From a bacterium (GTDB lineage: Bacteria; Zhuqueibacterota; QNDG01; DSAB01), in assembly GCA_016931965.1 (NCBI GenBank), contig JAFGDT010000007.1, positions 1,063 through 65,062 of the forward strand: a stretch of DNA of 64,000 nucleotides. The letters run 5' to 3'. Each line of letters opens with the position of its first letter. The stretch's first letter is position 1. The notes beneath the pieces are model-generated. The model was not told the DNA's origin. It saw only the letters and a list, made by a program, of their open reading frames with translations, and searched no databases. Shown here piece after piece: positions 451 through 50,903 of the stretch. The translations under genes were made by a program, and so were the position numbers.

Positions 451-512
451 AGTGCCTAAAATAAATCAAAATATAAAATGTAAATATCAAAACCACAATC
501 CAAAATGCAAAA
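451..512. repeat. AGTGCCTAAA motif plus 50-nt 7-periodic A-rich arm
   Basis: aaatcaaaatataaaatgtaaatatcaaaaccacaatccaaaatgcaaaa (463-512) resembles arms at 4455, 10578 and 13130. Confidence 0.85.
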
Positions 513-600
513 TCATCTCTTCTCTCTAAGTCGTCAAAATGCTCGATGCAAAAATATTTCCAATCTCTTCTCATTCTTTTAAAAACCGACCAACTTCATT
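513..600 (-). pseudogene. 3' remnant of a four-helix-bundle gene
   Basis: Reads EVGRFLKE*EEIGNIFASSILT, then after a +1 shift LREKR*, versus EVDWFLKELEEIGNIFASSILTLKGKR* in 13180-13551; its stop abuts the arm as in the intact copy. Confidence 0.85.
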
Positions 601-659
601 TTATGGATTATCCGAAATCCTTCCCCTCACACCCGGCGGCCCCGGAATATGCTTGAAAT

Positions 660-1362: not shown

Positions 1363-1530
1363 TTACCTTTCTAAAATATTATGGAATGGTTGGAATTGAT
1401 AAGATAAAATTGTTTTTATATCCAACTTTTTTGATGAATCTAAAATTTCTATCCCAACAATTTTACCTGAATCTGTAAAATCTAAATGAACTCCCTCTGC
1501 CACTTCAACAACGCCATCTGGTTTTTCTTC
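1363..1530 (-). pseudogene. 5'-truncated DUF2283-like (antitoxin-associated) gene
   Basis: Manual translation EEKPDGVVEVAEGVHLDFTDSGKIVGIEILDSSKKLDIKTIL...*; no start; its TAA abuts the HEPN ATG. Confidence 0.7.
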
Positions 1531-1585
1531 CCCTGAGCGTTAAAATACCCGATACGAAAATATTTCCAATCTCTTCCAATATTCC
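1522..1585 (-). pseudogene. Second 3' remnant of a four-helix-bundle gene
   Basis: LEEIGNIFVSGILTLRGRK versus LEEIGNIFASSILTLKGKR. Confidence 0.75.
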
Positions 1586-1695: not shown

Positions 1696-1757
1696 CCCGA
1701 ACCTTTCCACTCGATCCTTCATTCGAGAATCACTATCCGGATTGTTCATCTTCCTGT

Positions 1758-2375
1758 TCAAAACCGGCTCAACGCCACATCTGTCAGAAACGACCGGATT
1801 TCTTCCCCATCAGGGGACTCTGCCGCCATATCCACTTCTTCAGAATAATCGATATCATCGAAATAGGCCAATTGTTCACGGAACAATTTATCATTAAAGA
1901 CAGTCCCAAACAATTGATGAGCCCTTATTTCAATTTCCCCTAAAGAAAAATGATCCCGCAGCAGAAAATAGAGATCCACATAATCTTTCCATTTGCCCCG
2001 GCCTCCTAACGCTTGGGCTTTCATGGCACCGAGATCCAGCAGGACAGGCATGGAAATCACTCCTTCAAAATCAATTGGTGCAGGGATTTGAAATGGATAG
2101 GCGAAAAAAGTCAGTTTCACACCAAGCAACAGGCAATGCATTTGATCAAATGCCTCATAGAGTACATCCTCAATTTGAAAACCGCTTCTTTTTATTGTAT
2201 TTTGAATCTGCATTCTGTGGATCTCATTGTGGGTAAACAAATCAAAATCAATGGACCGCCGGTGTCCGATGTGCAGGGCGACGGCTGTTCCGCCTGCTAA
2301 ATAATATTGATCTGAAAAGTGGTGAAGAAGCGGCAGGAGCGCTTTTTGATTATCTGTCAGTATTTCAGGATGCAT
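1758..2375 (-). CDS. AbiEii-like nucleotidyltransferase (type IV TA toxin)
   Basis: Likely start MHPEIL at 2375; YYLAGGTAVALHIGHRRSIDFDLF and KWKDYVDLYF motifs. Confidence 0.85.
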   Translation of the reverse strand: MHPEILTDNQKALLPLLHHFSDQYYLAGGTAVALHIGHRRSIDFDLFTHNEIHRMQIQNTIKRSGFQIEDVLYEAFDQMHCLLLGVKLTFFAYPFQIPAPIDFEGVISMPVLLDLGAMKAQALGGRGKWKDYVDLYFLLRDHFSLGEIEIRAHQLFGTVFNDKLFREQLAYFDDIDYSEEVDMAAESPDGEEIRSFLTDVALSRF

Positions 2376-2637
2376 GTCTTTCAAAGTACTGCCGAAAGAA
2401 ATGGACGGTTCTTGGATGATAGTTGACACGCCTTCCGCCTATCTGTCGATTAAAAATTTCAGAAATTCTTTTCATGGATGCAATTTCGAACAATTCACGG
2501 ATATCCGAAATGTGTCCGTATTTCAGGATGGTTTCCACAACCGCACTGAGACTCAGGTTCTCTTTTGCCCCTTCACGGATATCCCAGAACAGATGGCTGT
2601 GCTGACGGATGTAGACTTTTAATGCTTCGGAATCCAT
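2365..2637 (-). CDS. DUF6922-like small partner (putative antitoxin) of the AbiEii protein
   Basis: 90 aa; LFWD...VVETILKYG motif; overlaps the AbiEii start. Confidence 0.7.
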   Translation of the reverse strand: MDSEALKVYIRQHSHLFWDIREGAKENLSLSAVVETILKYGHISDIRELFEIASMKRISEIFNRQIGGRRVNYHPRTVHFFRQYFERHAS

Positions 2638-2765
2638 GACAATAAAAATAAGTTCCTAAATTGCCTGAAGTCATAAAAAATCAAAATGTACCACTCTTGT
2701 CCAAAATAGGAAATAATTGAATTGATTATTTTTTTTAGCTTTTATTCATCTTCCAGGTTACAAGG

Positions 2766-2846
2766 GGATTCCGGCTCAAAACACGACCGGAATGACAGAG
2801 GGAGGGATGTCATTCCCGAAATTTTTAATCGGGAATCCAGGGGCGG
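2766..2846. repeat. REP-like double hairpin, GTCATTCC(C)...GGAATCC family
   Basis: Two head-to-head stem-loops; an inverted homolog lies at 16741-16820. Confidence 0.85.
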
Positions 2847-2970
2847 TGCTTTGATAACCTGATATTTAAATATAAAGAAAAACCAGTGTAACCCGCTTGT
2901 TCTCAATATATCCATTTCCTGTTTTGGACAGCAATGAAAATGTATAAATCAAAATGACAATATTAAAAAA

Positions 2971-2988
2971 TGCCTTAAGTGCCTAAAG
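2971..2988. repeat. TGCCTTAAG-TGCCTAAAG 9-mer tandem, left arm of an inverted repeat around the 4HB gene
   Basis: Complementary tract tttaggcactctaggcact at 3443-3461. Confidence 0.75.
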
Positions 2989-3050
2989 TTATACATTCTC
3001 TCATTGTTTTATACATTTTTAGAATTTTAATAAATTTGAATGAATCACAT

Positions 3051-3437
3051 TCAATGATTTGTTTTGCACGTTTTAAATATTTGAGAAAACAAGGCCAGCA
3101 ATTCGCCCGATTCTTCATATAGCTTTTTCATCTGTTCAACAGGTATCAATTCTGATTCCATAATAAGCTCTATCCAGTATTGAGTCTCAGCTGCTTCTTT
3201 TGTACAAATTGAAATTTTATTCTTAAAATCAGCTTGGCTGACAGATCTGTTGGCCTCACGGTAGTTGGCTCCTATCGATGTACCGGCTTTTATTAACCGA
3301 TAACAAATCACCTTTCCAGCGGCATTTGTTTTTAGTTTGAAGGATAAATTGATTATGTTAATCGCAAACCTTTTTGTTCTTTTCTCTAACTCTATAGCAA
3401 ATTCTTTATTGGTCAATTTTTCTTTTTTACAATTCAT
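3051..3437 (-). CDS. Four-helix-bundle protein (23S rRNA IVP / TIGR02436-like)
   Basis: LEKRTKRFAI...GTSIGANYREA...DFKNKISICTKEAAETQYWIEL signature. Confidence 0.9.
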   Translation of the reverse strand: MNCKKEKLTNKEFAIELEKRTKRFAINIINLSFKLKTNAAGKVICYRLIKAGTSIGANYREANRSVSQADFKNKISICTKEAAETQYWIELIMESELIPVEQMKKLYEESGELLALFSQIFKTCKTNH

Positions 3438-3464
3438 CTCATTTTAGGCACTCTAGGCACTTTT

Positions 3465-3567
3465 ACCCTGTGTAATAACATATTTTCTTGATGAATGAGA
3501 TAATAAACATAACTTTTTATAATTAGAAGTCTTATACACATCGTGAGGATTCACTATTACACAGGGT
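3465..3567. mobile_element. Small MITE-like element with 13-bp perfect terminal inverted repeats
   Basis: accctgtgtaata (3465-3477) / tattacacagggt (3555-3567); nested in a TAGGCACT tract; related to 10368-10433. Confidence 0.55.
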
Positions 3568-3653
3568 TAACTTTAGGCACTCTCAGTCTCGGGCGTAATT
3601 TTGGATAGGGACATTCCTCCCGTATTGTCGGTATTGGGGAATTGAATTAAATC

Positions 3654-3694
3654 TTTTGACATTTGTCATTTTACCCCATTGGGATTTGGGATTT
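3654..3694. repeat. 41-nt direct repeat of 1598-1639
   Basis: ttttgacatttgtcattttaYcccattgggatttgggattt. Confidence 0.9.
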
Positions 3695-3719
3695 GTTTCT
3701 GTACTTGCTATTCTTTATT

Positions 3720-4070
3720 TTAATGTTCGGTTTTTACACGATTTTGAACAAACTGCCTGTACACTGCCGCATCCATCAGGTATGCGGCCATCATCACCTG
3801 TTCAATATTCCCATAAGGATGGTTATTGACGATCAAAGATCCGATCGATTCGCGCAGTCTCAACAGCTCACCCCGCTTGGCCCGCCATTTTGGATCTGCA
3901 ATGATGTAATCCAGAAGAATCAACGCCCGGTAGAGATGATTTTTCGCACTTCCAGGATTCCCCTCCTGCAAACATTTTGCTTTGTTCAAATCACTGACCA
4001 TATGGCCGATCTGGTCATCAGCAGAGAATGATGCATAACGGTCCTTCAAATTTTTATACCAGTTTTTCAT
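3720..4070 (-). CDS. Hypothetical helical protein, partner of the DUF5674-like gene
   Basis: Likely start MKNWYKNL at 4070; overlaps the upstream gene by 17 nt. Confidence 0.65.
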   Translation of the reverse strand: MKNWYKNLKDRYASFSADDQIGHMVSDLNKAKCLQEGNPGSAKNHLYRALILLDYIIADPKWRAKRGELLRLRESIGSLIVNNHPYGNIEQVMMAAYLMDAAVYRQFVQNRVKTEH

Positions 4071-4431
4071 CTGCCCCCAGTAAAAGTGACTCAATGATCC
4101 GTCTGACTTTTTCCTTTGCCTTTTCATCCAGTATTTCCATTGACGGATTATCCTGATGAGGACGAATATTGATCAACGCCGTATATTCGATGCGTTTATC
4201 CGGTTCGTGCCACGGGTAAAAGTTGATTCCCCAGAGCGCCTCCGGCCCTGATCCTTCTTGAAGCAGAAGCAGTTCAGCATCTGCATGGAGATCCCCGCCA
4301 ATACCGGCACATTCCTTTTCAATATCGACAACCACTTTAACCATGTCACCAAACCATGTTTCGCAAAGTGACTTTAACCGAGCTTTCGATATTTTCTGGT
4401 TCATTACCAGAATGCTTTCAGAACCCAACAT
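4054..4431 (-). CDS. DUF5674-like protein
   Basis: DMVKVVVDIE...GGDLHADAE...LWGINFYP...IEYTALINIRP motifs. Confidence 0.75.
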   Translation of the reverse strand: MLGSESILVMNQKISKARLKSLCETWFGDMVKVVVDIEKECAGIGGDLHADAELLLLQEGSGPEALWGINFYPWHEPDKRIEYTALINIRPHQDNPSMEILDEKAKEKVRRIIESLLLGADEKLV

Positions 4432-4454
4432 GAAATACCATTATATTATTCATC

Positions 4455-4660
4455 AAATCAAAAATTAAAATGCAAAAATTAAAATGACAATCCAAAATGC
4501 AAAATTATTTCTCAAAAGATACAAAATCAAAATGCCAAATAAAATCCTGCATTTCCGCTCATCCCTCGTCTCCGCTCGGGATGACATTTTTTCTTTTTGT
4601 CTTTTCCTTTTTGCCTTTTTCCTTTAATCTTGATTCTTGTATCTTCTTTAATATCTTATT
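4455..4660. repeat. Cassette spacer: A-arm, REP-B hairpin, T-rich tract
   Basis: A-arm 4455-4505; tcatccc...gggatga hairpin 4559-4584; 4494-4625 repeats directly at 5210-5341. Confidence 0.9.
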
Positions 4661-5125: not shown

Positions 5126-5186
5126 GGAAACCGAACAAAATGTACAAAGTTAAATAAAATTAAAAACCAAAATCATAATTGAAAAA

Positions 5187-5430
5187 AGTGCCTAAAGTCA
5201 TACAAAATCAAAATGCAAAATCATTTCTCAACAAATACAAAATCCAAATGTCAAATAAAATCCTGCATTTCCGCTCATCCCTCGTCTCCGCTCGGCATGA
5301 CATTTTTTCTTTTTGTCTTTTGCCTTTTGCCTTTTTCCTTTCTCTTCACTCTTGCTTCTTGCTTCTTTATCCTTGATTCTTTTTCCTTTTTACTTTTTCC
5401 TTTTGCCTTTTTACTTTTACCTTTATCTTG
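5187..5430. repeat. Cassette spacer, second copy of the ~130-nt direct repeat
   Basis: AGTGCCTAAAG at 5187; 5210-5341 differs from 4494-4625 at fewer than ~10 positions; long pyrimidine tract follows. Confidence 0.9.
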
Positions 5431-6198: not shown

Positions 6199-6410
6199 AT
6201 TAAAAATTAAAATGGAAAAACACTTCCTTTTGAATTTTGATCCTTCGCCTGCTCCTTCACTCCGTTCAGGACTTCGGCTCAGGACTGATCTGTCATTTTG
6301 CATTTTGATTTTTAATTCTAAAAATATTATTTATTTTGGATTTGGGATTTACCTTTTACCTTTTGCCTTTTTACTTTTTCCTTCTGCCTTTTATTTTTTC
6401 ACTTTTCTAT
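6199..6410. repeat. Cassette spacer: inverted arms 6199-6214 / 6301-6316 enclosing a REP-like fragment, then a T-rich tract
   Basis: attaaaaattaaaatg versus cattttgatttttaat (1 mismatch). Confidence 0.7.
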
Positions 6411-6900: not shown

Positions 6901-7035
6901 AAATCAAAAATTAAAATGCGAAAATATTATCCAACAAATCCAAAAATAATTTTAACATACCATTTTTGACACTTGGATTTTGGGCTTTATTTTTCATTTG
7001 GATTTTGACATTTGACATTTTTGCCTTTTTACTTG
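6901..7035. repeat. Cassette spacer: A-arm then T-arm
   Basis: 6901-6918 is identical to 13130-13147; T-rich heptamer tract at 6961-7035. Confidence 0.8.
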
Positions 7036-10304: not shown

Positions 10305-10470
10305 AGTGCCTAAAGTTATTCAAAATGTAAAAATCAAAACCACAATGAAAAATCCAAAATCCAAATTTACCCTGTTAGATAACTAACTTCTGACATCGAA
10401 TACAAATCCAAATAATTTCTATCTAACAGGGTAGATACCAATACTATCAAATAAAAAAAAGTGCCCAAAG
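10305..10470. repeat. AGTGCCTAAAG plus partial A-arm, MITE-like insert and AGTGCCCAAAG
   Basis: Same motifs as 451-512 and 5187. Confidence 0.8.
10368..10433. mobile_element. MITE-like element with 14-bp perfect terminal inverted repeats
   Basis: taccctgttagata / tatctaacagggta, 38-nt interior. Confidence 0.55.
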
Positions 10471-10577
10471 TAAGACAAAGAAAAAAGATAAAAGATAAAA
10501 CAGATTTTTCATTCATAAATCTGAACTGTATGATACATCTTTTCTGAAATGAATTTTCTTCATGATACTATTAAATT

Positions 10578-10683
10578 AAATCAAAAATCAAAATGTAAAA
10601 ATCAAAATGACAATGTAAAATGCAAATATATTTATTTTTGATTTTTGATATGTCATTTTTCATTTTGATATTTGATTTTTAAT
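10578..10683. repeat. Empty arm pair (hairpin with no cargo gene)
   Basis: Left arm 45/50 identical to 13130-13179; 10578-10595 pairs with 10661-10678 (1 mismatch). Confidence 0.85.
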
Positions 10684-10693
10684 ATACTCTTTA

Positions 10694-11293
10694 TCACGAT
10701 GTCTGAATCAGCATCTCCCCCTCAACCCCATACTCCTTCTGACACCGCATACAGATGGCCGTCTTCTCGACCACTTCCAGTTTCTCTCCGCATTCACAGA
10801 CCCAACCCTGCTGTTTAGCAGGGACGCCGACCATCAGTCCATAGTCGGGCACGTCCTTGGTCACCACAGCTCCTGCGCCGATAAAGGCATGTCTGCCGAT
10901 GGTATGACCGCAGACAATGGTGGCATTGGCGCCAATGGAGGCTCCTTCACGAACGAGTGTTTTTTTGTAAAATTCTTTTCCCCGCTGTGGGTATTTGCAC
11001 CGCGGATCGAGGATGTTGGTAAAGACCATCGAAGGACCGCAGAAGACATAATCTTCAAGCTCGACGCCTTCGTAGACCGAAACATTGTTCTGGATCTTGA
11101 CATGATTGCCGATCCTGACGTTGTTCCCCACATTCACATTCTGCCCCACAGAACAGTTTTTCCCGATCATCGAACCGCTCTGAATATGCGAAAAATGCCA
11201 GATTTTCGTGCCCTCCCCGATCTCCACATTCTCATCCACATAACTGCTCTCGTGCACAAAGTATTTCTTTTTTTCAGCCATTGTATGATCCAC
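10694..11293 (-). CDS. WbpD/WlbB-like sugar N-acetyltransferase (hexapeptide repeat)
   Basis: IGEGTKIWHFSHI, KIQNNVSVYEGV, VFCGPSMVFTN, GASIGANATI. Confidence 0.88.
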   Translation of the reverse strand: MDHTMAEKKKYFVHESSYVDENVEIGEGTKIWHFSHIQSGSMIGKNCSVGQNVNVGNNVRIGNHVKIQNNVSVYEGVELEDYVFCGPSMVFTNILDPRCKYPQRGKEFYKKTLVREGASIGANATIVCGHTIGRHAFIGAGAVVTKDVPDYGLMVGVPAKQQGWVCECGEKLEVVEKTAICMRCQKEYGVEGEMLIQTS

Positions 11294-11314
11294 TTTTACT
11301 GAAATAAACGAACA

Positions 11315-11557
11315 TCATGTTTTGCCGGATTGATGCGAATGCATAGCTGCCCTTAATCTCCCCTGTGTCTGAATCAGTGCCTCCAGATGCTCCTGATGCC
11401 ATTTTTGAATCATATCGGGATGCATGGATTGACCGAATTCGTATAATTCGGCAAATTGCTCTAAATGTTCTTGCACTGAAATCTGTTTATTGTACCTGAT
11501 TTCCCAATCATTGAAACGGCGATATTTCTCCAAAAGAAGTGTGTATCTATTTTTCAT
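11315..11557 (-). CDS. Hypothetical 80-aa protein coupled to the nucleotidyltransferase
   Basis: Overlaps the stop of 11547-12107; no recognisable motif. Confidence 0.55.
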   Translation of the reverse strand: MKNRYTLLLEKYRRFNDWEIRYNKQISVQEHLEQFAELYEFGQSMHPDMIQKWHQEHLEALIQTQGRLRAAMHSHQSGKT

Positions 11558-12107
11558 GTTTCATCTGTTCCAGTTTTTCAATAATCATTGCATTGTTCAG
11601 GAACTCTGAGAGCTCCCTGCAGTGTTTCATCACGTGGTCCCAATCCAAATTGTCCGCATGATTTTCAACAACCGTCCGAATATCGATCCAGTCCTTTTCC
11701 CTTTTGGAAATGGCTTTTTGAATAATAAAATCTTCCGGTGTACATACACTGGCCTCAATGCCAAACAGAGACGTTTTTCGGCTTCGTTTAACCGCTTCTT
11801 TCTCAAACGGCAGTTCGGCAACTACAAGATCAATCCGGCAACCAGCCACTTTTATCGGCAATACATTGGTTTCTTTGATAAACTGTTCAGGCTTCTCAGA
11901 GAGGAATTCTGAAACAGGACCAAGTATCTTTATCAGCTTTGCATAACCTTTCTGACCACCTGGCAGCAGGATCTTGATATCAATATCCACCGTAAATCTT
12001 GGACATCCATAAACTGACAGAGCTATACCCCCAAAAATCATGTATTCAATCTGATTTTTTTCAAAAACGGATATTAATATCCCAAGTGATTTTTTGAAAG
12101 GTTTCAC
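11547..12107 (-). CDS. Nucleotidyltransferase (DUF6036/AbiEii-like fold)
   Basis: MIFGGIALSVYGCPRFTVDIDI and EDFIIQKAISKREKDWIDI motifs; GTG start abuts the upstream stop. Confidence 0.75.
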   Translation of the reverse strand: MKPFKKSLGILISVFEKNQIEYMIFGGIALSVYGCPRFTVDIDIKILLPGGQKGYAKLIKILGPVSEFLSEKPEQFIKETNVLPIKVAGCRIDLVVAELPFEKEAVKRSRKTSLFGIEASVCTPEDFIIQKAISKREKDWIDIRTVVENHADNLDWDHVMKHCRELSEFLNNAMIIEKLEQMKHEK

Positions 12108-13088
12108 TTACCATTGCTCCATCAAAGATGCCGTTGCCCTTTCCAGAATTTCCAGAACCTCCACACCATTCTGACCGTTGGCAATTTCAACCGGTGAACC
12201 GTCCAGATGATTCAGAAAATAGCGCAGTTCCTCTGTGAGCGGCATGGCCGGATCATACGGGATCACTTCCGTCGGCCCCTCCCGCTTAATCGGTTCGCCG
12301 CGGACCCAGTCGATGCCTTTTTCGTAATAGAGAACCTCTTTTTCTTCTGAGGAATCCTCAAACGACAGCATGCCTTTCGATCCGATGATGACCAGCCGGT
12401 GCTCTTTAAAGGGATGCAGCCAGCTGACAAAATTATGGACCACAATATTATTGGGATAGGTTAAAACCGTCATGGTGGAATCATGAATGTGGGGCTGGAT
12501 AAAGGCACCGCCGCGGGAAACGATTTCAACAGGCAGCGCTTCGATTAAATACTGAAAAATAGCGATATCGTGCGGAGCAAAACTCCACAAAATGTTCTCC
12601 TCTTTACGGACGGTACCAAGGTTCAACCGGTTGCTGTAAATATATTGAAGTTTGCCGATTTTATCTGTTTGGATCAATTCCTTGATTTTTCGTATCGCGG
12701 GATGGAAAAGAAGCACATGCCCCACCATCAGATTGACACCTTGTTTCTCGGCCAGATCACGAAGCCTGATGGCATCTTTCAGATTGAGTGTAATTGGTTT
12801 TTCGACGAGAGCATGCTTTTTTGATTTTATGACACTTTCGGCGATCTCGTAATGGGTTTCGGCTGGCGTGGCCACAATGAATCCGTCAAAATCCGCCTCA
12901 ATTGCCTGCTGCAAATCTTCAAAAACCTTGATATGCGCATATTGATTTTGATAGGCCTCAAGCGTTTCCCGATGGTTATCGACAACGCCTCCCAGACAGT
13001 GAAACTGATCAAGCGTCTTGATATGATTCTTCCCCCACCTGCCACCACCGACAACGCAAACATTTCTATCATTTGATTTATGAGTCAA
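12108..13088 (-). CDS. Gfo/Idh/MocA oxidoreductase, WbpB/WlbA-like
   Basis: VVGGGRWGKNH, VEKP, VGHVLLFHPA, WSFAPHD; context with aminotransferase and acetyltransferase. Confidence 0.82.
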   Translation of the reverse strand: MTHKSNDRNVCVVGGGRWGKNHIKTLDQFHCLGGVVDNHRETLEAYQNQYAHIKVFEDLQQAIEADFDGFIVATPAETHYEIAESVIKSKKHALVEKPITLNLKDAIRLRDLAEKQGVNLMVGHVLLFHPAIRKIKELIQTDKIGKLQYIYSNRLNLGTVRKEENILWSFAPHDIAIFQYLIEALPVEIVSRGGAFIQPHIHDSTMTVLTYPNNIVVHNFVSWLHPFKEHRLVIIGSKGMLSFEDSSEEKEVLYYEKGIDWVRGEPIKREGPTEVIPYDPAMPLTEELRYFLNHLDGSPVEIANGQNGVEVLEILERATASLMEQW

Positions 13089-13129
13089 CCTGAAATCCTT
13101 TCGCTTTCTATTTTGGATTTGCCATACTT

Positions 13130-13179
13130 AAATCAAAAATTAAAATGCAAATATCAAAATGACAATGTAAAATGTAAAA
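13130..13179. repeat. A-arm directly after the 4HB stop codon
   Basis: 13130-13151 pairs with 13545-13566 at 21/22 positions. Confidence 0.9.
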
Positions 13180-13551
13180 TTACCTCTTTCCTTTAAGTGT
13201 TAAAATACTGGAAGCGAAAATATTTCCAATCTCTTCTAATTCTTTTAAAAACCAATCTACTTCTTTTTGTTGAACACGCTTACTATCTCTAAGCAAAGAA
13301 ATCCACAGTTTACTCTCATTTGTCGATTTTAAAGATATATTAAAATAGTTCGTGAAATCCTTTTTGCTACTGGCAGCTTGACCTTCTATATAATTTCCCA
13401 ATATACTTGTGCTGCTACGTAATAGCTGATCTCCAAGCCTTTTGGAAACATTGTCTTTAGGTAAATGATCCAAAAATTCTATCAACTTAAGAACAAAACG
13501 ATAAAGACGACCTTTAAACTCCTTTTTAAATTTTGATCTGCCATTTTGCAT
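13180..13551 (-). CDS. Four-helix-bundle protein (23S rRNA IVP / TIGR02436-like)
   Basis: QLLRSSTSILGNYIEG..ASSKKDF...SLKSTNESKLWISLL signature. Confidence 0.92.
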   Translation of the reverse strand: MQNGRSKFKKEFKGRLYRFVLKLIEFLDHLPKDNVSKRLGDQLLRSSTSILGNYIEGQAASSKKDFTNYFNISLKSTNESKLWISLLRDSKRVQQKEVDWFLKELEEIGNIFASSILTLKGKR

Positions 13552-13570
13552 TTTAATATTTGATTTTTAC
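13543..13570. repeat. T-arm containing the 4HB start codon
   Basis: attttgcattttaatatttgatttttac; the ATG (13551-13549) lies inside the repeat. Confidence 0.85.
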
Positions 13571-13591
13571 ATTATTACTCACAAAACAACT

Positions 13592-14728
13592 CTATTGATA
13601 AAATTCCATGATTGCCTCGATGACATAATCTTGCATCTCTCTTGTTAATTCGGGATAAATCGGTAGCGCCAATGTATGGGAAGCGGCATGCTCGCTGTTC
13701 GGAAAATCGCCGGTTTGATATCCCAAATATTGAAAACAGGCCTGCTGATGAAAGGGTACGGGGTAGTAAATTTCATGACCGACCTGTTTCTTTTTGAGAA
13801 AAGCGCCGAGGTCATCCCTTCGGTCCGGAACGGAAATCACATACTGATTGTAGATGTGATACTCCCTCTCGTAGGCAATCACCGGTTTTTGAATGCCTTC
13901 AACATTGAGATGAGCATCATAGTAAGCAGCATTCTCCTGACGCCCCTTATGCCATGTTTCAAGATAGGTGAACTTGACAAGCAGAATAGCCGCCTGTATG
14001 GGATCCAGCCGAAAATTGCCGCCGATGAGTGAATGATAATATTTGGGAGAGGCCCCGTGATTCCTTAACTTGATCAACTTGTAGGCCAGACCTTCATCAT
14101 TGGTAACAACCATACCCCCGTCACCCATCGCACCCAGATTCTTGCTCGGGAAAAAGGAGAAACATCCCATTGCCCCCATGCTGCCTGCTTTCCTGACATC
14201 GGTTGATGAGGGATATCGGGCGCCGATGGCCTGGGCGGCATCCTCGATAACAGGAATGTCGAATTGGCTTGCCATTTCAAGGATTGGATCCATATCCGCA
14301 CATTGCCCGTAGAGATGCACGGGGATCATTGATTTGACTTTCTTCGCCTTTTTGGGATTGTCATAAAACCAATTCTTGAGTGCCTGGGGATCCATGTTGT
14401 ACGTATCCGGCTCGATATCGATGAAAACCGGCACAGCACGGAGACGGGCGATCACACCCGCTGTGGCAAAAAAGGAATAAGGTGTGGTGATGACCAGATC
14501 ATCCGGCTGGATGTCCAATGCCATCAATGAAACGAGCAGAGCATCCGTTCCTGAAGAGACACCGATACCGAAAGCAGCACTGCAGTATTTCGCCAGAGTC
14601 TTCTCCAATTCGACCACTTTGGGTCCCATGATATACCGTGTGGATTCAATCACTTCATCGATTGCTTTTTTCACTTCATCCCGAATCGGCTCCAGTTGCG
14701 CTTTCAGATCAAGTAAAACCACTTCCAT
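13592..14728 (-). CDS. DegT/DnrJ/EryC1/StrS aminotransferase, WbpE-like
   Basis: SSGTDAL, VHLYGQ, EDAAQAIGA, FSFFPSKNLGAMGDGG, GGNFRLD. Confidence 0.9.
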   Translation of the reverse strand: MEVVLLDLKAQLEPIRDEVKKAIDEVIESTRYIMGPKVVELEKTLAKYCSAAFGIGVSSGTDALLVSLMALDIQPDDLVITTPYSFFATAGVIARLRAVPVFIDIEPDTYNMDPQALKNWFYDNPKKAKKVKSMIPVHLYGQCADMDPILEMASQFDIPVIEDAAQAIGARYPSSTDVRKAGSMGAMGCFSFFPSKNLGAMGDGGMVVTNDEGLAYKLIKLRNHGASPKYYHSLIGGNFRLDPIQAAILLVKFTYLETWHKGRQENAAYYDAHLNVEGIQKPVIAYEREYHIYNQYVISVPDRRDDLGAFLKKKQVGHEIYYPVPFHQQACFQYLGYQTGDFPNSEHAASHTLALPIYPELTREMQDYVIEAIMEFYQ

Positions 14729-44034: not shown

Positions 44035-45078
44035 TTATGATGTATAAAACTTAAAAAGTGTAAATTGTGTGTACTTATCCCCCTCATTCAGAATAGTTGA
44101 TGGGAATTTCGATTGATTCGGTGAATCTGGAAAATGCTGCATTTCGAGACAAAATCCGCCATGGGGCTGATATCTTGTACTGTCTTTTCCCACAACTGAA
44201 CCGTCCAGATAATTGCCCGTATAGAATTGAACACCTGGCTCTGTTGTATGTATCTCCATTGCGCGACCACTCGTTGGTTCCCAGACACGTGCAGCCAGAT
44301 CGAGCTTTTCATCTCCTTTGGCAAGTACCAGATTGTGATCATATCCCTTGTCCATTTTATCAATCCTTTCTCCTATTTTTCTGGGTTTTGTAAAATCGAG
44401 CGGTGTATTTTTCACAGAACGGATGTCACCTACAGGAATCATATTTTTATCAACCGGTGTATACGTATCCGCCATCACAAATAATTCATGATTAAGAACG
44501 GATCCAGCACTTTGAGAAGCCAGATTGAAATAGGTGTGATTCGTCAGATTGACCGGAGTCGGTTTGTTGGTTGTGGCTTCGTAAATCATTTGTAATGCAT
44601 TGTCATTCGTTAGTGAATAAGTGATCATACATGAAAGATCCCCTGGATAACCCTCTTCCCCATCATGACTGAGATAATGAAGTTTAACACCAACTACATC
44701 TTCTGTTTCAAAAGATTCCGCATTCCAGACGACCCTGTCGAATCCTCTGAATCCACCATGGAGATGATTCGGACCATCGTTGACCGTTAAATGATATTCG
44801 ACCCCGTTGATCTTGAACTGGCCTTTTTTGATCCGGTTCGCATACCGTCCGATAATCCCTCCGAAATGAGGACTATTCCCTTTGAGATATCCTTCAAGTT
44901 GGTCAAAGCCAAGGACGATATCTTCAACATTTCCTTCCCGATCTGGAACCTCAATTGAGGCCACAATGCTGCCATAGGTGATGATCCCGACCTTCATGCC
45001 AAGATCATTGGTCAGTTTATAAAGATCAATTTGAACATCTGTTTCTGTCTTTCCAAAAGATGATTTATGAATATTCAT
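44035..45078 (-). CDS. galM: Aldose 1-epimerase
   Basis: GRYANRI, NHLHGG, NLTNHTYFNL, GFCLEMQHFPDSPN; start MNIHK. Confidence 0.93.
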   Translation of the reverse strand: MNIHKSSFGKTETDVQIDLYKLTNDLGMKVGIITYGSIVASIEVPDREGNVEDIVLGFDQLEGYLKGNSPHFGGIIGRYANRIKKGQFKINGVEYHLTVNDGPNHLHGGFRGFDRVVWNAESFETEDVVGVKLHYLSHDGEEGYPGDLSCMITYSLTNDNALQMIYEATTNKPTPVNLTNHTYFNLASQSAGSVLNHELFVMADTYTPVDKNMIPVGDIRSVKNTPLDFTKPRKIGERIDKMDKGYDHNLVLAKGDEKLDLAARVWEPTSGRAMEIHTTEPGVQFYTGNYLDGSVVGKDSTRYQPHGGFCLEMQHFPDSPNQSKFPSTILNEGDKYTQFTLFKFYTS

Positions 45079-45192
45079 TGTATTCCTCCTTCCTTTGATT
45101 TTTCCCAGTTCTTGATTCAAAAAGCTGATAATTATAAATACTACAATATGAAAAGTGCAATTATAAAAACGATAACCTCTTCATAAAATGAT

Positions 45193-47205
45193 TCATACTG
45201 GCAACGAGTTGGATACTTCTTTGACAACTTGCAACAACTTATTTGAATCATAGGGTTTTTCTAAATAGGAAAATTTCTTATGTTTGATATCAGGCCATCT
45301 CGATTTACAATCGGCATAACCACTATTCAACAAAACTCTGAGATCCGGTTTCCTAATCAGCAACTCGTTGATTAATTCAATCCCATTCCTCCCCGGCAAA
45401 ACAACATCACAAATGATGATCTGAAAATCCGCATTCATTTTCTGAAAAATATTGATTGCCTCTTCTGCATTTGAAGCTGTATGTACAACATAACCGCCTT
45501 GTTTCAAACAATTGGCTGTAAAATTGCGTAATTTCTTTTCATCTTCGACGAGCAACACTTTTTCCCCATCTCCGGAAAATTCCTGATTCCCAAACAAAAC
45601 TGGATTTTCATTCTCATCTTCCAATTTGTTTAATAAAGCTGGCAAATAAATTTGAAAAGTTGAACCATAATCCACCTCACTTTGCACTTGAATCCAGCCG
45701 TTATGTTGTCTGACGATGCGACGAACGATGGAAAGCCCCAGTCCTGTACCTTTTCCGGCTTTTTTGGTACTGAAAAATGGATTAAAAATGCGTTTGATCG
45801 TATTTTTATCCATACCTGTACCGTTATCTGAAATGATAATGCGAACATACCGACCTGGATGAGATTCGGGAGTTTCTTCAGGTTGAGTCTTATGAACAAT
45901 CGTATTTTCAGTCTTTATGATCAATTCCCCCCCCTCTGGCATGGCATCTCTCGCGTTGATGGCCAGATTCATAATGACCTGTTCTATTCTTCCTCGATCG
46001 GCATGTAAACTCCATAAATCGGATGCAAGTTGGCTACTGATTCTGATATCTTCACCAATTAAAGGCTGAAGCATTTTCATTAAATTCAAAATGGTTTCAT
46101 TCAGATCAATAACAGCATATTTTTGAGTTTGTTTACAATTGAAAAGAAACAATTGTCTTATCAGTTCGGCTGCCCTTTTCCCGGCAACCTGAATATCAAT
46201 GAGATCTTGATAAATGTGATCTGTCTTATTAATCTGCTCCAATGCCATATCTGTAAATACCAAAATGGCTGTTACCAAATTATTAAAATCATGCGCAATT
46301 CCACTCACTAGAACACCGATCATTTCAAACTTTTGAATATAGAGAAGTTGTTTTTCTATACTCTCTTTTTCCTCTTTCAATTCTTTTTGCGATTCATGAA
46401 CCCTCATTGCCCAAATTCCGTAAGCAAGATTGTCTGCCAATCTCTCTAACAAATCAATTTCCCCCTCTATAAAACAATATTCCTTTTCCGAGTATATATT
46501 CAATACACCTATAACTTCATCATCATATTTCAAAGGAAAACTCACAACAGATAAGAATCCTCTTTCGATTGCTTCAGATTTCCATAATTGATGACTTGAT
46601 ATTGACCGAATTCTTTGAAGTAGACAAGGTTGACATGTCAGAATGGCTTTATGGATTGGATTATCATTTGCATTGTTCTCTCGAAGTTCAGATACAACTG
46701 TTTCAAGATATTCTCCATTACATCCTGCTTTCGATATTGGGCGAATATTTTTCGAACCGTTTTTATCAATAAAACCCACCCAAACAAAAGCATACTGTCC
46801 AATATGAACAAGCAGATTGCATATATCGCGAGTCAAAGAGGACTCATCTTTGGCTTTGACAAGAACCCTGTTGCTTTCAATGAAGACCATTCGTGCTCGA
46901 TTGATTCTAACCTGTGTTTCACGTGAATTTTCTTTATCTATTATGGTATTCTCTGGTTCTTTTCGAGACTGATTTATTGATTTCACATAAATACCGAAAA
47001 ACAGGAAGATACAAATACCCAGTAGACGAATCCAGAAAGACAAGGCATCAGGGAATAAGAACCTTTCAAATAGAGACTCTTTCTCCAATAATATGATATC
47101 CTTGATGGATTCAACAAACCAGTATAATACACTGAAACTGATACCCACCAAAACCAAATGAATCATTTTCTTACTGACTATTTTCCCCTCTATCATATCA
47201 TCCAT
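45193..47205 (-). CDS. Hybrid sensor kinase: 2 TM, GAF, HisKA, HATPase, receiver
   Basis: GIAHDFNN, NLAINARDAM, DNGTG, FFSTK..GKGTGLGL, C-terminal LLVEDE. Confidence 0.92.
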   Translation of the reverse strand: MDDMIEGKIVSKKMIHLVLVGISFSVLYWFVESIKDIILLEKESLFERFLFPDALSFWIRLLGICIFLFFGIYVKSINQSRKEPENTIIDKENSRETQVRINRARMVFIESNRVLVKAKDESSLTRDICNLLVHIGQYAFVWVGFIDKNGSKNIRPISKAGCNGEYLETVVSELRENNANDNPIHKAILTCQPCLLQRIRSISSHQLWKSEAIERGFLSVVSFPLKYDDEVIGVLNIYSEKEYCFIEGEIDLLERLADNLAYGIWAMRVHESQKELKEEKESIEKQLLYIQKFEMIGVLVSGIAHDFNNLVTAILVFTDMALEQINKTDHIYQDLIDIQVAGKRAAELIRQLFLFNCKQTQKYAVIDLNETILNLMKMLQPLIGEDIRISSQLASDLWSLHADRGRIEQVIMNLAINARDAMPEGGELIIKTENTIVHKTQPEETPESHPGRYVRIIISDNGTGMDKNTIKRIFNPFFSTKKAGKGTGLGLSIVRRIVRQHNGWIQVQSEVDYGSTFQIYLPALLNKLEDENENPVLFGNQEFSGDGEKVLLVEDEKKLRNFTANCLKQGGYVVHTASNAEEAINIFQKMNADFQIIICDVVLPGRNGIELINELLIRKPDLRVLLNSGYADCKSRWPDIKHKKFSYLEKPYDSNKLLQVVKEVSNSLPV

Positions 47206-47385
47206 TTTTAAATTTATCTTTACTTTACAAATCTCAACTCACCTCACAATTCTTATGGTTAGAGATGAACGTGCTCCTTTTCATATTTCAGTATTTTTAA
47301 AAAACAGAAAAAACCAAACAAGAAAAATATAATATGCAAATTATTGCCTCTATTTAATTTTATTCTCGCCTATTAACCATTTGAT

Positions 47386-47400
47386 ACAATAGCCATGCCA
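47386..47400 (-). promoter_or_regulatory. Possible sigma54 -24/-12 site
   Basis: TGGCATGGCTATTGT versus consensus TGGCAC-N5-TTGC; ~180 nt upstream of the hybrid kinase. Confidence 0.35.
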
Positions 47401-47624
47401 ATATTTGGTAAATATTAATTAAAAATATTTAATTATGTATAAATTAGAAAATGTTGTAAAAGTTTGGAAAAGTTACTTTAAAAGAAGGTTATGAAAGAAA
47501 TGAAATAAATTGATCTTAAGGAAATTATATCATTATGGAATCGGAAAATATTACCCATATCCACATCCGTCAAAAAATACCCTTTTATTGTTAAGTATTT
47601 TATAAACATTCACAATAAAAATAT

Positions 47625-48251
47625 CTAATTTGATAATTCAACATTAAAAAACATTTTTTCCAATACATTTTTAGAAAACCGCCATTGGCCTCCAATTTTT
47701 AAAGCGGGTATTTTACCTTTATGCACTAGATTATAAACCGTTTTTTCGGTTACATGAAAAAATCGAGCCGTTTCTTTAATACTAAAAATTTGATAATCAG
47801 AATGACGCACGCTCACTTCATTATCTTGATGTTTGCTGGTATAAAAATGAATACAATTTTTTACTTTTGATAAAAGAATATCCAAATTTAAAGGTTTGCA
47901 CATGTAATCATAAGCACCAATGTTCAATCCCTTTAAAATATCCTGTTCATCAATAAATTGACCCGACATAAAAATACAAGGAATGTCATAAAATTCCAAT
48001 TTACTTTTTTGGCATGTGATAAAAAAATCATATCCCTTCATGTCTGGTAAACTTATATCCACAAGCATCAGATTCGGTTTAAACGATTGGGTCGTTTTAT
48101 TCCCTCCATAAATTCCCAGAACTTCAAGGGCTTCACTGCTATTTGAACAAGTTTTAATTAAATAATGCTTTCTTGAAAGATATATTTTCACCAATTTTCT
48201 AATATACTCATCATCATCAACAAGCAGTATCCTTCCTGCTTCATGAACCAT
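47625..48251 (-). CDS. Response regulator: receiver plus excisionase-type (HTH_17) DNA-binding domain
   Basis: ILLVDDD...DISLPD...KP; C-terminus SIKETARFFHVTEKTVYNLVHKGKIPALKIGGQWRF. Confidence 0.85.
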   Translation of the reverse strand: MVHEAGRILLVDDDEYIRKLVKIYLSRKHYLIKTCSNSSEALEVLGIYGGNKTTQSFKPNLMLVDISLPDMKGYDFFITCQKSKLEFYDIPCIFMSGQFIDEQDILKGLNIGAYDYMCKPLNLDILLSKVKNCIHFYTSKHQDNEVSVRHSDYQIFSIKETARFFHVTEKTVYNLVHKGKIPALKIGGQWRFSKNVLEKMFFNVELSN

Positions 48252-48551
48252 GACAATTTCTCCTTAAGTTACCAAGGAAATTGAACAAATTACACAAAAA
48301 AAGATTGTCTTTCATATTCATATTCTCAGATTGTATCCTACCAATGTCAGGAGTATTTACAGCATGGGGTATTCTATTTTATTTATCGACCAGTAATAGA
48401 CCTTCTAAATAATTCGAATCTCCCTGAAAAATGATTTTTATACAACCGGCTATTTACAATGAATACCACACCCTCACTTATAGCCATTTCTTAACAACCA
48501 TTCCTAATCTGCTTTAATCACACTACTTCCTTATATTCATGTAACAAAACA

Positions 48552-48914
48552 CTATGACAAAAAGTTAACCTTTCTTTCCAATGCCTTTACCAGTTTCTGC
48601 AACTTTACGGGTTTTTTAAAAATGATATAGTGTTCTGATTTGATAGAATAGTAATAAGCTGAAAGTATAATAATTCTTAAGGATGGATATATCGTTGACA
48701 CATAATCGGCTATCCAGAATCCATTCAATCCGGGCATCCGAGCATCGACAACAATGCTTTCGACTTTGTCATTTTGTTTTTGGTTCACCTGTAAAAATTC
48801 CAGGGCTTCCACTCCGCTACCGGCTTCATAGGTTTGATATCCCATGGTTTCAAGACCAATTGATAGGGAACGACGAAAATGGGTGTCATCATCCACCAGC
48901 AACACACTTTTCAT
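48552..48914 (-). CDS. Single-domain response regulator
   Basis: VLLVDDD, DARMPG, KP. Confidence 0.88.
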   Translation of the reverse strand: MKSVLLVDDDTHFRRSLSIGLETMGYQTYEAGSGVEALEFLQVNQKQNDKVESIVVDARMPGLNGFWIADYVSTIYPSLRIIILSAYYYSIKSEHYIIFKKPVKLQKLVKALERKVNFLS

Positions 48915-48973
48915 TTAAATCCCTCCATATCAAATCTATTTTATCTTTATATGTGAAAGAGATGGACACATCT

Positions 48974-49342
48974 CTAAACCCAATGATTTTGAAGTGATTG
49001 ATTCATGACGGATAACATCTGTTGCATATTGAATGGTTTTTTCAAAAACGGACACCCATTCGCCTCTCCTTGAAGTTCAAACGCGGATATAAGAATAACT
49101 GGCAGTGATGGATAATTTTGTTGTATTTTGCTGAATAGTTGTGTCCCATTTAGGCCATCCATTTTCATATCGCTGATCACCAAATCCGGCATACCCTTTT
49201 GTAACTGAAAATGTTTATCCAGATACATTAACGCTTCATCGCCACTCTGAACCTCTGTAACATGAAAACCTTCGAACTCCAATTGAATCAGCAATGATCT
49301 GCGAAAATTATGGTCATCATCAACAAGAAGGACGTGTAACAT
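48974..49342 (-). CDS. Single-domain response regulator
   Basis: VLLVDDD, DMKMDG, KKPF. Confidence 0.88.
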   Translation of the reverse strand: MLHVLLVDDDHNFRRSLLIQLEFEGFHVTEVQSGDEALMYLDKHFQLQKGMPDLVISDMKMDGLNGTQLFSKIQQNYPSLPVILISAFELQGEANGCPFLKKPFNMQQMLSVMNQSLQNHWV

Positions 49343-49384
49343 ACTGTTAATCTCAAATATTGATTATAATTAATAAAATTGATG

Positions 49385-49399
49385 TCAATTTTCATGCCA
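49385..49399 (-). promoter_or_regulatory. Possible sigma54 -24/-12 site
   Basis: TGGCATGAAAATTGA, 43 nt upstream of 48974-49342. Confidence 0.3.
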
Positions 49400-49556
49400 A
49401 GAATATCAAATAATTATTATTCTCATGAATGAATATATGACCAAAAATAATTAATTAAATATAATTGAATATAAAATTAGGAAGGTAAAATAAGCATTAA
49501 CCAAGATTGAGGTGTTCAATATCTGACACATTAAATTTCATTTTATACATTCATAA

Positions 49557-50903
49557 TTACGCAATACCATAGCTTTTCAATCTTGATATTAAGGTAGTTC
49601 GTGATAATTTCAGTATTTCCGATGCCCTTTTCTTATTCCCACCTGTTTTATGGTAAACAGATAATATATATTTCTTTTCTACTTCTGCCAGCGGTAGATC
49701 GCCCTCACCGATCATTTCATTTCCATTTTCTTGCATATTGAAAAATTTTAGAGGCAGATCATCCATATTGATTTCATTGGTTTTTGTAACAATCAAGGCA
49801 TGTTCGATTGTGTTTTCCAATTCTCTCACATTTCCAGGCCATGAATAGTCTTGAAAAAGACGATATACGGTAGGATGAAGATGATAAATCGGTTTTCCCA
49901 TTCGCTTGGAATAGTTATCCAAAAAGCGCTGAGTCAAATCGGAGATATCTTCTCTGCGTTCTCGTAATGGAGGAATATAAATTTCTGCAACAGACAAACG
50001 ATAGAAAAGATCTTCTCGAAACTTCCCATTGCGAATATCTTTCCGTAAGTCCCTGTTGGTTGATGCAATAATACGAACATCCGATTTTCGTTCTTCCACC
50101 TCTCCTATACGCCGAAAAAGTCCATTGTCGAGGAATCGAAGCAACCGCACCTGAAAAGCGGGCGGTGCTTCTCCAATCTCGTCCAACAACAATGTTCCTC
50201 CATCAGCTTCTTCAATCAGACCCCGTTTTGTAATTGTGGCCCCAGTAAATGCCCCTTTACAATGTCCAAAAAGTTCACTATCTAAAAGTGTATCAGGGAA
50301 TGCACCGCAGTTAATAGGCACAAAAGGTCCATCTTTTCTGTTGCCGAGATGATGAATAGCTATGGCAACCAGCTCTTTTCCAACCCCACTTTCACCTTGT
50401 ACCAAAACAGGAACAACCCGATCTGCGTAGAGTGTGACTTTATGCATTACATCCCGCATGGAATCACTCACCGTAACAATATCATCATAAAGATAGTGAT
50501 CAGCAATAACAGCTTTGAGATGCTTAATCGTTTGCTTCAGATCCATTTGGTTAAAAACATTTTTCAGAATCACCTGTAAATGATCCATTGAAAACGGTTT
50601 GACAATAAAATTAAATGCGCCTAATTGCATCGCTTTCACCGCTTTGGAAATTGTCCCATGTGCACTCATGAGAATGACTTCTGTAACAGGACTCAGCTCT
50701 TTTACTTTCCGTAAAAGTTCAATCCCCCCCATCCCTTCCATAACCAAATCAGTTAACATAACGTCATAAACATCACGAGTAACAAAATCGAGTGCTTCCT
50801 TACCACTGGAGGCTTCACTTGTTCGGTATCCCCATTCTTCAAGAGCAATACTCAAACTGCGACGCATGTTTTTTTCGTCATCAACAACCAGAATATTAGG
50901 CAT
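49557..50903 (-). CDS. Sigma54-dependent NtrC-family response regulator
   Basis: Receiver; [24 protein letters not shown]; Fis-type HTH. Confidence 0.95.

Follow-up and report, generated by a model that had tools for sequence, protein, structure and literature searches.

What is a small gene doing inside a long inverted repeat in the spacer of a sugar operon, and why does the same repeat recur nearby with no gene inside it? The question is raised by a 64,000-nt stretch of DNA from a bacterium of the Zhuqueibacterota (GenBank assembly GCA_016931965.1, contig JAFGDT010000007.1; the whole stretch is called the window below), in which a gene for a 123-aa four-helix-bundle (4HB) protein and its two flanking arms form a unit of ~446 nt on the minus strand (Table 1). 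We lean towards the view that this unit is a selfish cassette of the intervening-sequence (IVS) type that lives in operons.

Arms and gene of the filled and empty copies

A reading made from the letters of the window (the sequence-only reading) had proposed that 13130-13151 pairs with 13545-13566 at 21 of 22 positions around the whole 4HB gene, with the ATG inside the right arm and the stop codon abutting the left arm. Direct reading of 13130-13151 (AAATCAAAAATTAAAATGCAAA) against the reverse complement of 13545-13566 (AAATCAAATATTAAAATGCAAA) confirmed the 21 pairs. The ATG is at 13549-13551 and the stop codon at 13180-13182. A distance of 8 nt separates the stop codon from the extended left arm; by profile, the 3' arm begins at the stop itself. 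An inverted-repeat search lengthened the arm pairing to 43 nt at 77%. In the direction of the gene, the 5' arm consists of 24 non-coding nt, the ATG and the first ~10 codons (MQNGRSKFKK), arranged in imperfect A-rich heptads, and the 3' arm of about seven T-rich heptads that run from the stop codon and complement the 5' arm save for a 7-nt bulge. When the copies are aligned, homology between paralogues begins at about -24 relative to the ATG. No Shine-Dalgarno sequence was found upstream of the window 4HB gene. Consistent with the sequence-only reading, the long-range stem is present in both the minimum free energy and the centroid folds of the minus-strand RNA of the filled copy; its complete 501-nt fold is unremarkable (z = -0.8). 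The 18-mer of the arm occurs 21 times at up to three mismatches, against 0.74 expected, and the 22-mer three times against 0 expected.

The host of this cassette is a sugar-synthesis or sugar-modification operon. The filled copy does not lie within a 16S or 23S rRNA helix but occupies, in the same orientation, the spacer between the genes for a DegT-family aminotransferase and a GFO/IDH/MocA oxidoreductase (DegT|GFO below). At the gathering score of Rfam 15 the arms match no family, and the window yields one tRNA only.

The product of the gene is a basic protein (pI 9.95) that matches PF05635 (E 3e-19, 69.6 bits against a cut-off of 33.8) and TIGR02436 (83.1 bits, cut-off 24), and its AlphaFold2 model has four helices at pLDDT 93.9. 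Foldseek found the best structural matches in the solved family members 2RLD (E 3e-6, TM-score 0.79-0.90; phmmer against 2RLD gave E 3e-11) and 2GSC (TM-score 0.68-0.85), followed by Avd, the protein of diversity-generating retroelements (4DWL and 8UB7, TM-score 0.73-0.84). The models and the fold agree with what the sequence-only reading had stated, a family seen first in rRNA intervening sequences that shares the fold of Avd. The likeness to Avd extends to small size, basic charge and distant sequence similarity (NF033474, E 1.9e-6), but the window protein scores 28.1 bits against the equivalog cut-off of 80 for that model; no RVT domain is present among window open reading frames (ORFs) of at least 200 aa, and template/variable repeats were not searched for. 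A relationship to HEPN proteins was considered and dropped, as the paper on the HEPN superfamily never names the 4HB family. Codon positions 1 and 2 are 0.82 identical between loci, indicating strong purifying selection on the 4HB protein. We found 2573 close homologues of the window protein, and no 4HB homologue in 50,697 phage records.

Directly downstream of a hexapeptide acyltransferase gene in the same region lies an arm pair with no gene. Its left arm had been put at 45 of 50 positions identical to that of the filled copy; the similarity stands and the figure does not, since 10576-10626 matches 13128-13178 at 47 of 51 positions (92%). The other arm is also closely similar (10635-10681 against 13523-13569, 87% identical). 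The remaining claims made for this copy hold: 10578-10595 pairs with 10661-10678 at 17 of 18 positions, and both stems are mismatched at the same place, arm position 9. On its own, the empty copy gives a minus-strand RNA hairpin of -29.6 kcal/mol (z = -4.0); for a tighter cut the values are -22.6 kcal/mol and z = -3.4. In 10576-10685 codons 1-10 are joined to the 3' arm through ~7 nt, and because these codons and both arms remain, the empty copy amounts to the filled unit without its loop.

Recurrence, pairing and conservation of the arms

Homologues at 51-82% amino acid identity were collected from 80 genome loci, nearly all of which have the same layout. Their hosts include Planctomycetota (Sedimentisphaerales, Pirellulales, Kuenenia), Patescibacteria, Ignavibacteria, Bacteroidota, Gammaproteobacteria, Dehalococcoidia, WOR-3 and others. 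The 5' arm extends from about -24 to +30, and the 3' arm covers ~50 nt from the stop in roughly seven heptads (TTTTGCA, TTTTGAT, ATGTCAT, TTTGATA, TTTGCAT, TTTGATA, TTTGATT). A profile search found at least one arm in 60 of the 64 full-length loci and both arms in 48, with profiles that were built from most of the same 64 loci. The consensus pairs as an 18-bp outer and a 24-bp inner helix with a 7-nt bulge on the 3' side. In this fixed register 80.7% of cells pair, compared with 41-59% after sliding by 1-3 columns, and the arm duplex of the window's subfamily (A) has an energy of -28.2 kcal/mol, compared with -16.4 for shuffles. Column pair 18/106 of the 47-sequence alignment is AU in 12 sequences, UA in 10 and unpaired in 25, so that the mismatch shared by the two window stems at arm position 9 is a weak spot throughout the family.

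Identity between loci is at random level at four-fold synonymous sites (0.31) and in the flanks outside the arms (0.28), whereas the arms are 0.65-0.68 identical. Identity drops to 0.36-0.53 when one of the compared arms is shifted, and a shift of 7 gives a secondary peak, a period-7 signal. The arms contain 4-32% G+C even where the G+C content at third codon positions of the ORF reaches 0.74. Moreover, in one clade the entire 5' arm lies upstream of a new ATG, and conservation of this arm is therefore not explained by coding. Taken together, these comparisons of sequence indicate that the arms are under selection.

The same design is found with other heptamers. All five plasmid-borne distant homologues are bracketed by inverted tandem heptamers: (AATTCGC)x4 upstream and (TTGCGAA)x4 downstream in Nostoc, (TAATTCG)x4 and (TTACGAA)x4 in Dolichospermum, CCCCAAT and CGTAAAT units and their complements in Planktothrix, TTTTAGA and TCTAAAA in Gloeocapsa, and a short heptamer pair in Bernardetia. 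The arrays of Nostoc and Dolichospermum are perfect, with matching copy numbers on both sides. On the cyanobacterial plasmids of this set (L097-L101 in all) the cassettes lie between members of defence-like gene clusters, such as genes for a DUF1156 methylase, a helicase and a Swt1-type HEPN protein.

At 70 metagenome loci, which represent subfamily C, the only arrays found were of period 7 (22 upstream and 15 downstream at a strict threshold); arrays of period 5, 6, 8 or 9 were absent. Arrays were present on both sides at 26 of the 70 loci. Here the upstream and downstream units are exact reverse complements of each other in 15 of 26 cases, and in 21 the fit has at most one mismatch, compared with 8% and 27% when loci are swapped, and cognate arms pair at -50.2 kcal/mol, compared with -42.1 for swapped arms (p = 4e-6). 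Complementary arrays on both sides were found for 24 of the 70 4HB genes, versus four of 58 neighbouring ORFs. These sequence data amount to covariation at the level of the whole arm in subfamily C, and all five plasmid genes show it as well. A core of the form nGAWTnn (GAAT or GATT) occurs in 22 of the 26 distinct heptamers; shuffles that preserve composition contain it in 3.9 +/- 1.7, and 0 of 2000 shuffles reach 22.

Copying, occupied sites and remnants

Cassettes of this type are embedded in operons. The upstream neighbour lies on the same strand at 60 of 66 loci and the downstream neighbour at 60 of 63, some of the exceptions being artefacts of ORF picking. The median gaps between cassette and neighbour are 27 nt upstream and 66 nt downstream, so that the arms take up the whole spacer between the stop codon upstream and the ribosome-binding site downstream. 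The leuC|leuD spacer is occupied in many Phycisphaerae, and one Pirellulales genome (L029) has, in this order, an L25-like gene, a filled cassette, pth, an empty cassette and rpsF. Paralogues within one metagenome-assembled genome (MAG) are 82-94% identical in protein sequence, with third-position identity of 0.57-0.77 against a background of 0.42; their flanks are unrelated and homology stops at the arms. This pattern indicates that the cassette is copied as a unit, arm to arm. Insertion into pre-existing hairpin loops of the host was considered and rejected, as the flanks outside the arms are non-complementary (-5.9 versus -5.8).

Two loci deserve separate mention. In an Anaerohalosphaeraceae chromosome (OY775912.1, L074) a single housekeeping operon, at 1752-4351, holds two cassettes. 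Its leuC is followed by a 4HB gene that belongs to another subfamily and has GAAATTC/GAATTTC heptads, and its leuD by a truncated copy of subfamily A; in other Sedimentisphaerales the leuC|leuD spacer holds subfamily A. In a Candidatus Kuenenia MAG (L048) the stop codon is followed at 4379-4492 by a 5' arm with ~25 codons, a truncated restart, and then by a 3' arm, which looks like a partial tandem duplication of the cassette.

Three relatives (L094, L095 and L096) share the gene order of the window. At their DegT|GFO junctions L095 has a solo 5' arm only, and L096 has a toxin-antitoxin pair and no arms. The junction of L094 is occupied by a frameshifted 4HB gene of a different kind, whose arms are AAATCCC/GGGATTT, and after it comes a leftover 3' arm of the window type. 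Past the hexapeptide transferase gene, at the site of the window's empty copy, arms that are empty or degenerate are present in L095 and L094 too, and L096 has another palindrome only. Variation at homologous loci, which the sequence-only reading had named as a check, is thus found at DegT|GFO. Loss of the cargo with retention of the arms, also part of that reading, is seen in the window, at the same site in relatives and in other genomes: Pirellulales (L029, 5008-5124) and Patescibacteria (L069, 1981-2095) have arm pairs that lack the gene and show the same breakpoints, so that such pairs are known from three phyla.

Further remnants are present in the window (Table 1). The arm profiles detected five 3' arms and three 5' arms, every one on the gene strand. 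The decayed copy is 83% identical to the filled copy over 141 nt, and the arm pair with a non-coding loop, whose 5' arm at 6286-6317 contains ATGCAAAATGACAGATCAG, folds at -32.4 kcal/mol (z = -3.6). The second, divergent 4HB gene is flanked by a different inverted repeat of the GTGCCTAAAGT type, with a 3'-arm-like piece at 2933-2967. Heptad-like arrays are confined to the first 14 kb; beyond lie ordinary genes of a Gram-negative chromosome (BamA, TamB, LpxA/C/D, SMC, FtsK). The sequence-only interpretation is supported in part. It had overlooked the 7-nt repeat structure of the arms, the further copies in the window and the wide distribution of a conserved cassette.

Table 1. Cassette, host genes and related copies in the window
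Feature	Position	Strand	Basis or remark
Filled cassette	13128..13575	-	~446 nt; 5' arm, 123-aa 4HB gene, 3' arm
5' arm, filled cassette	13519..13575	-	arm5 profile match 13573-13519, E 4.7e-10
4HB gene (PF05635 / TIGR02436)	13180..13551	-	ORF and family models
3' arm, filled cassette	13128..13182	-	arm3 profile match 13182-13128, E 2.7e-9
Upstream host gene, DegT-family sugar aminotransferase	13592..14728	-	stop 40 nt before cassette ATG
Downstream host gene, GFO/IDH/MocA oxidoreductase	12108..13088	-	start 91 nt past cassette stop
5' arm, empty copy	10634..10685	-	arm5 match E 3.1e-6; ATG and ~10 codons retained
3' arm, empty copy	10576..10626	-	arm3 match E 1.1e-8
Hexapeptide acyltransferase gene	10694..11293	-	empty copy directly downstream
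Decayed copy	466..602	-	3' arm 466-515 (arm3 match E 1e-4); last ~29 4HB codons with in-frame stop, 516-602
4HB gene 3'-end fragment	1523..1580	-	19 codons, 74% aa identity; tblastn and blastn
Second, divergent 4HB gene	3051..3437	-	128 aa, 27% identical to first
Solo 3' arm	4453..4507	-	91% identical to 13130-13182; arm3 E 4.5e-8
Arm pair around ~70-nt G+C-rich non-coding loop	6190..6335	-	arm5 E 8.5e-5
Degenerate 3' arm	10320..10361	-	arm3 E 1.3e-4

Other repeats accompany these copies. GTGCCTAAAGT and its complement ACTTTAGGCAC form a second, lineage-specific repeat family of nested-palindrome appearance that is often the outer inverted pair around 4HB cassettes; sites are found at 443-455, 2975-2990, 3440-3460, 3565-3580, 5185-5200, 10308-10320 and 10461-10472, as well as in L001 (3880-3960 and 4490-4535) and L096 (9680-9765). 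T-rich heptad-like runs (TTTTGCC, TTTTACC and TTTGGGA on the plus strand, A-rich in the direction of the genes) occur at 1595-1700, 3655-3700, 4590-4640, 5300-5420, 6330-6400 and 6975-7030 and resemble the arms of other 4HB subfamilies, the GGGATTT type being that of the frameshifted gene in L094. A ~45-nt repeat, cctgcatttccgctcatccctcgtctccgctcgg[g/c]atgacatttttt, forms a G+C-rich hairpin within A+T-rich spacers at 4548-4592 and 5262-5306. ACCCTGT...ACAGGGT palindromes are present at 10365-10436 (10365-10381 with 10420-10436, 17 nt at 94%) and at 3468-3565, where a similar pair encloses 70 nt of A+T-rich sequence ahead of the second 4HB gene.

The first 8300 nt, at the end of a polysaccharide gene cluster, hold an array of small co-oriented minus-strand genes of toxin-antitoxin type (four or five MNT-HEPN pairs, HepT-like; AbiEii with a DUF6922 partner; DUF5674 with a partner), interleaved with 4HB remnants and heptad-like spacers; its cassette content varies among L094-L096. 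Between the oxidoreductase and acyltransferase genes (11315-12107) lie a gene for a DUF6036/AbiEii-like nucleotidyltransferase (186 aa) and an overlapping gene for an 80-aa partner. This pair is present in L095 and absent from L094, and so looks like another mobile two-gene cassette within the operon. At 45000-50000, G+C falls to 0.28-0.37, compared with ~0.43 elsewhere, and response-regulator and histidine-kinase genes are found.

Explanations and known relatives

We ranked five explanations for the cassette: an IVS-type element is first, a DNA-level element with terminal inverted repeats second, a non-mobile regulatory module third, and integron-like cassettes and chance last. According to the first, 13128-13575 would be a copy of a selfish cassette that is compact (~446 nt) and has no promoter. 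Its location in the operon, with neither promoter nor Shine-Dalgarno sequence of its own, leads us to infer that it must be transcribed within the operon RNA. In this RNA the arms could pair into a ~42-bp A-U-rich stem with a conserved 7-nt bulge, with the ORF looped out. Excision by RNase III, which is established for the rRNA intervening sequences of Coxiella and Leptospira, may by analogy apply to the window cassette, and cleavage of the stem would free a nearly leaderless 4HB message and split the flanking cistrons. The unit is copied arm to arm into new spacers, as the paralogues show, and the nGAWTnn heptads most likely serve as binding sites for the 4HB protein, the one partner that the arrays always have. 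The copy at 10576-10685 and the other arm-only pieces would then be derivatives that have lost the ORF loop and kept the stem.

The arm-gene-arm design proposed by the sequence-only reading matches the published IVS of Coxiella. This IVS is 428-444 nt long with a 28-bp stem interrupted by one mismatch and one bulge, has two or three GACAGAT heptamers before the start codon of S23p and a poor Shine-Dalgarno sequence, and is cut by RNase III in the stem; in one strain 176 bp of the ORF are missing (PMC4990558). In bacteria of the candidate phyla radiation (CPR), an ORF of the 4HB/IVS family is found in insertions of 16S and 23S rRNA (PMC11270868). The rRNA intervening sequences of Coxiella, Leptospira, Brucella and CPR bacteria share with the window cassette the protein family, the size (428-444 versus ~446 nt), a long stem with one mismatch and one bulge that encloses the ORF, heptamers beside the start codon, a poor or absent Shine-Dalgarno sequence, ORF-deleted variants, a G+C content low relative to the host and a sporadic distribution. 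They differ in host, which is an rRNA helix and not the spacer of a protein-coding operon, and in the heptamer unit, GACAGAT in Coxiella not being that of the window cassette. In addition, RNase III excision is established for the rRNA elements and a prediction for the window cassette.

Several observations weigh against an IVS-type cassette. The authors of the Coxiella study hold that the IVS protein is not made in vivo (PMC4990558), and the Coxiella ORF is thought to be decaying, whereas the ORF of the window family is under strong purifying selection. Covariation within subfamily A is weak, as swapped partners pair equally well (-28.2 kcal/mol), and just 10 of 500 shuffles match the fraction of paired cells found in the alignment. 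G-U/A-C counts in subfamily A are 88/55, compared with 92/61 expected from shuffles, and in subfamily C the duplex is as stable in antisense as in sense. Since these strand tests are neutral, the advantage of the sense strand in subfamily A (-28.2 versus -24.6 kcal/mol for antisense) is compositional, and the complementarity, being simply Watson-Crick, could be maintained in the DNA. The start codon of subfamily C is found in the loop, after a Shine-Dalgarno sequence, so that a start codon hidden in the stem is not general. Finally, no target-site duplication is visible at the borders of the paralogues, where the ends are A+T-rich, and no mobility enzyme was found among the window ORFs of at least 200 aa. 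The complementarity may therefore reflect either the DNA level (terminal repeats bound by one protein, or conversion between arms) or a strictly Watson-Crick substrate of RNase III.

The first of these possibilities leads to the strongest rival, a mobile element that acts as DNA, which we regard as clearly less probable than an IVS-type cassette. Its arms would be terminal inverted repeats with nGAWTnn protein sites, the hairpin would be irrelevant, the gene-less copies would resemble miniature inverted-repeat transposable elements, and the binder would be either the pentameric 4HB protein itself or a transposase acting in trans. Strand-symmetric complementarity with no G-U bias fits such an element well, and so do its multiple copies, the paralogues in unrelated contexts with homology ending at the arms, the empty copies and solo arms, and the dispersal of terminal inverted repeats in many copies. 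A conserved core within variable heptads points to protein recognition over pairing alone, and co-variation of the two ends would be expected from binding by a single protein. The lack of a visible target-site duplication may count against this rival as well. No transposase, integrase or reverse transcriptase was found among window ORFs of at least 200 aa, and a 123-aa helical bundle has no known catalytic motif. In addition, the orientation is nearly always that of the host operon, a bias that may stem from sampling intact ORFs only, and processing at the RNA level has been demonstrated for the homologous elements in rRNA (PMC4990558).

It is unlikely that the cassette is a non-mobile autoregulatory or insulating module, in which the arrays are RNA or DNA operators for the 4HB protein and the unit spreads passively with host DNA. 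The protein would then control its own translation and the coupling of neighbouring cistrons, as its basic charge (pI 8.9-9.95), the presence of its structural relative Avd in a ribonucleoprotein (8UB7), the ATG inside the stem in subfamily A and arms that directly adjoin the stop codon upstream and the ribosome-binding site downstream might suggest. A module of this kind is at odds with copies in unrelated loci of the same genome, with different subfamilies at the same junction in related genomes and with gene-less arms that persist where the regulator is gone.

Less probable still are integron-like cassettes, in which the arms would be attC-type sites that fold as single-stranded DNA. Both kinds of cassette are small, co-oriented and promoter-less and end in imperfect palindromes, toxin-antitoxin-type genes split by such palindromes lie close by in the first 8.3 kb of the window, and cassette content differs between related genomes; however, no integron integrase or tyrosine recombinase was found among the window ORFs of at least 200 aa, by inspection the arms have no GTTRRRY/RYYYAAC attC cores, and single copies in housekeeping operons (leuCD, pth-rpsF) and in rRNA are unlike integron cassettes. 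Chance likeness of low-complexity A+T-rich spacers, for which one might cite arms of 84-96% A+T in many loci and ~47% identity from composition alone, can be dismissed in view of register-specific identity and pairing, the enrichment over shuffles, conservation in G+C-rich hosts and complementary G+C-rich heptads elsewhere.

Small palindromic repeats offer a further comparison. Correia elements (Correia repeat enclosed elements, CREE) of Neisseria, enterobacterial repetitive intergenic consensus (ERIC) sequences and repetitive extragenic palindromes (REP) with their mosaic elements (BIME) are imperfect palindromes of 100-150 nt that are co-transcribed in operon spacers, and Correia elements are RNase III substrates. 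We take the gene-less arm pairs to resemble these miniature repeats; the Correia, ERIC and REP families have no known protein-coding parent and are not known to have a heptad substructure, whereas the window unit has a coding full form.

Tandem heptamers have been described on their own. Xanthomonas has ~186 GGGAATC arrays, of which 70-75 are convergent pairs (PMC4692102), and one array overlaps the start of XCC0516, which encodes a 4HB protein (PDB 2GSC) and lies beside accB (PMC4692102 and supplement). These arrays, the GGGGA(C/T)T or short tandemly repeated repetitive (STRR) sequences of cyanobacteria and TAACTGA of Beggiatoaceae resemble the cassette arms in being tandem 7-nt units in transcribed spacers, often in convergent pairs. 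GGGAATC carries the nGAWTnn core; TAACTGA is without a GAWT core. The papers on heptamer repeats view them as G-quadruplex or regulatory motifs, with the 4HB family unmentioned. No paper was found that links operon 4HB genes with complementary heptad arms, or intervening sequences with such cassettes in operons, in a search that covered few subscription journals, and an earlier description is possible.

A wider proposal, which we put forward tentatively and with clearly less confidence than the reading of the window copy, is that 4HB proteins and nGAWTnn heptad arms together form a self-contained and very widespread class of mobile cassette. The 4HB protein, probably as a pentamer, would be the specificity factor of the arrays, arm-only derivatives and solo arrays would be the source of heptamer repeats such as STRR and GGGAATC, and rRNA intervening sequences would be copies of this element that have entered rRNA. 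The 4HB family comprises 4167 clusters at 50% identity and has had two crystal structures since 2006-2007, and its role is not known. Tandem heptamer repeats in transcribed spacers were described in cyanobacteria in 1990, ORF-bearing rRNA intervening sequences in 1993 and the Xanthomonas heptamer repeats in 2015. If the proposal is true, three unexplained matters, the function of the 4HB protein, the origin of ORF-bearing rRNA intervening sequences and the meaning of heptamer repeats, would become one system open to testing. Xanthomonas campestris XCC0516, Nostoc punctiforme pNPUN02 and Planktothrix offer cultivable models, and for annotation the arms could provide a recognisable signature of cassette borders and of pseudogenised copies. 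More generally, the cassette would show how a selfish gene can inhabit tightly coupled operons such as leuCD, accBC and pth-rpsF without breaking them.

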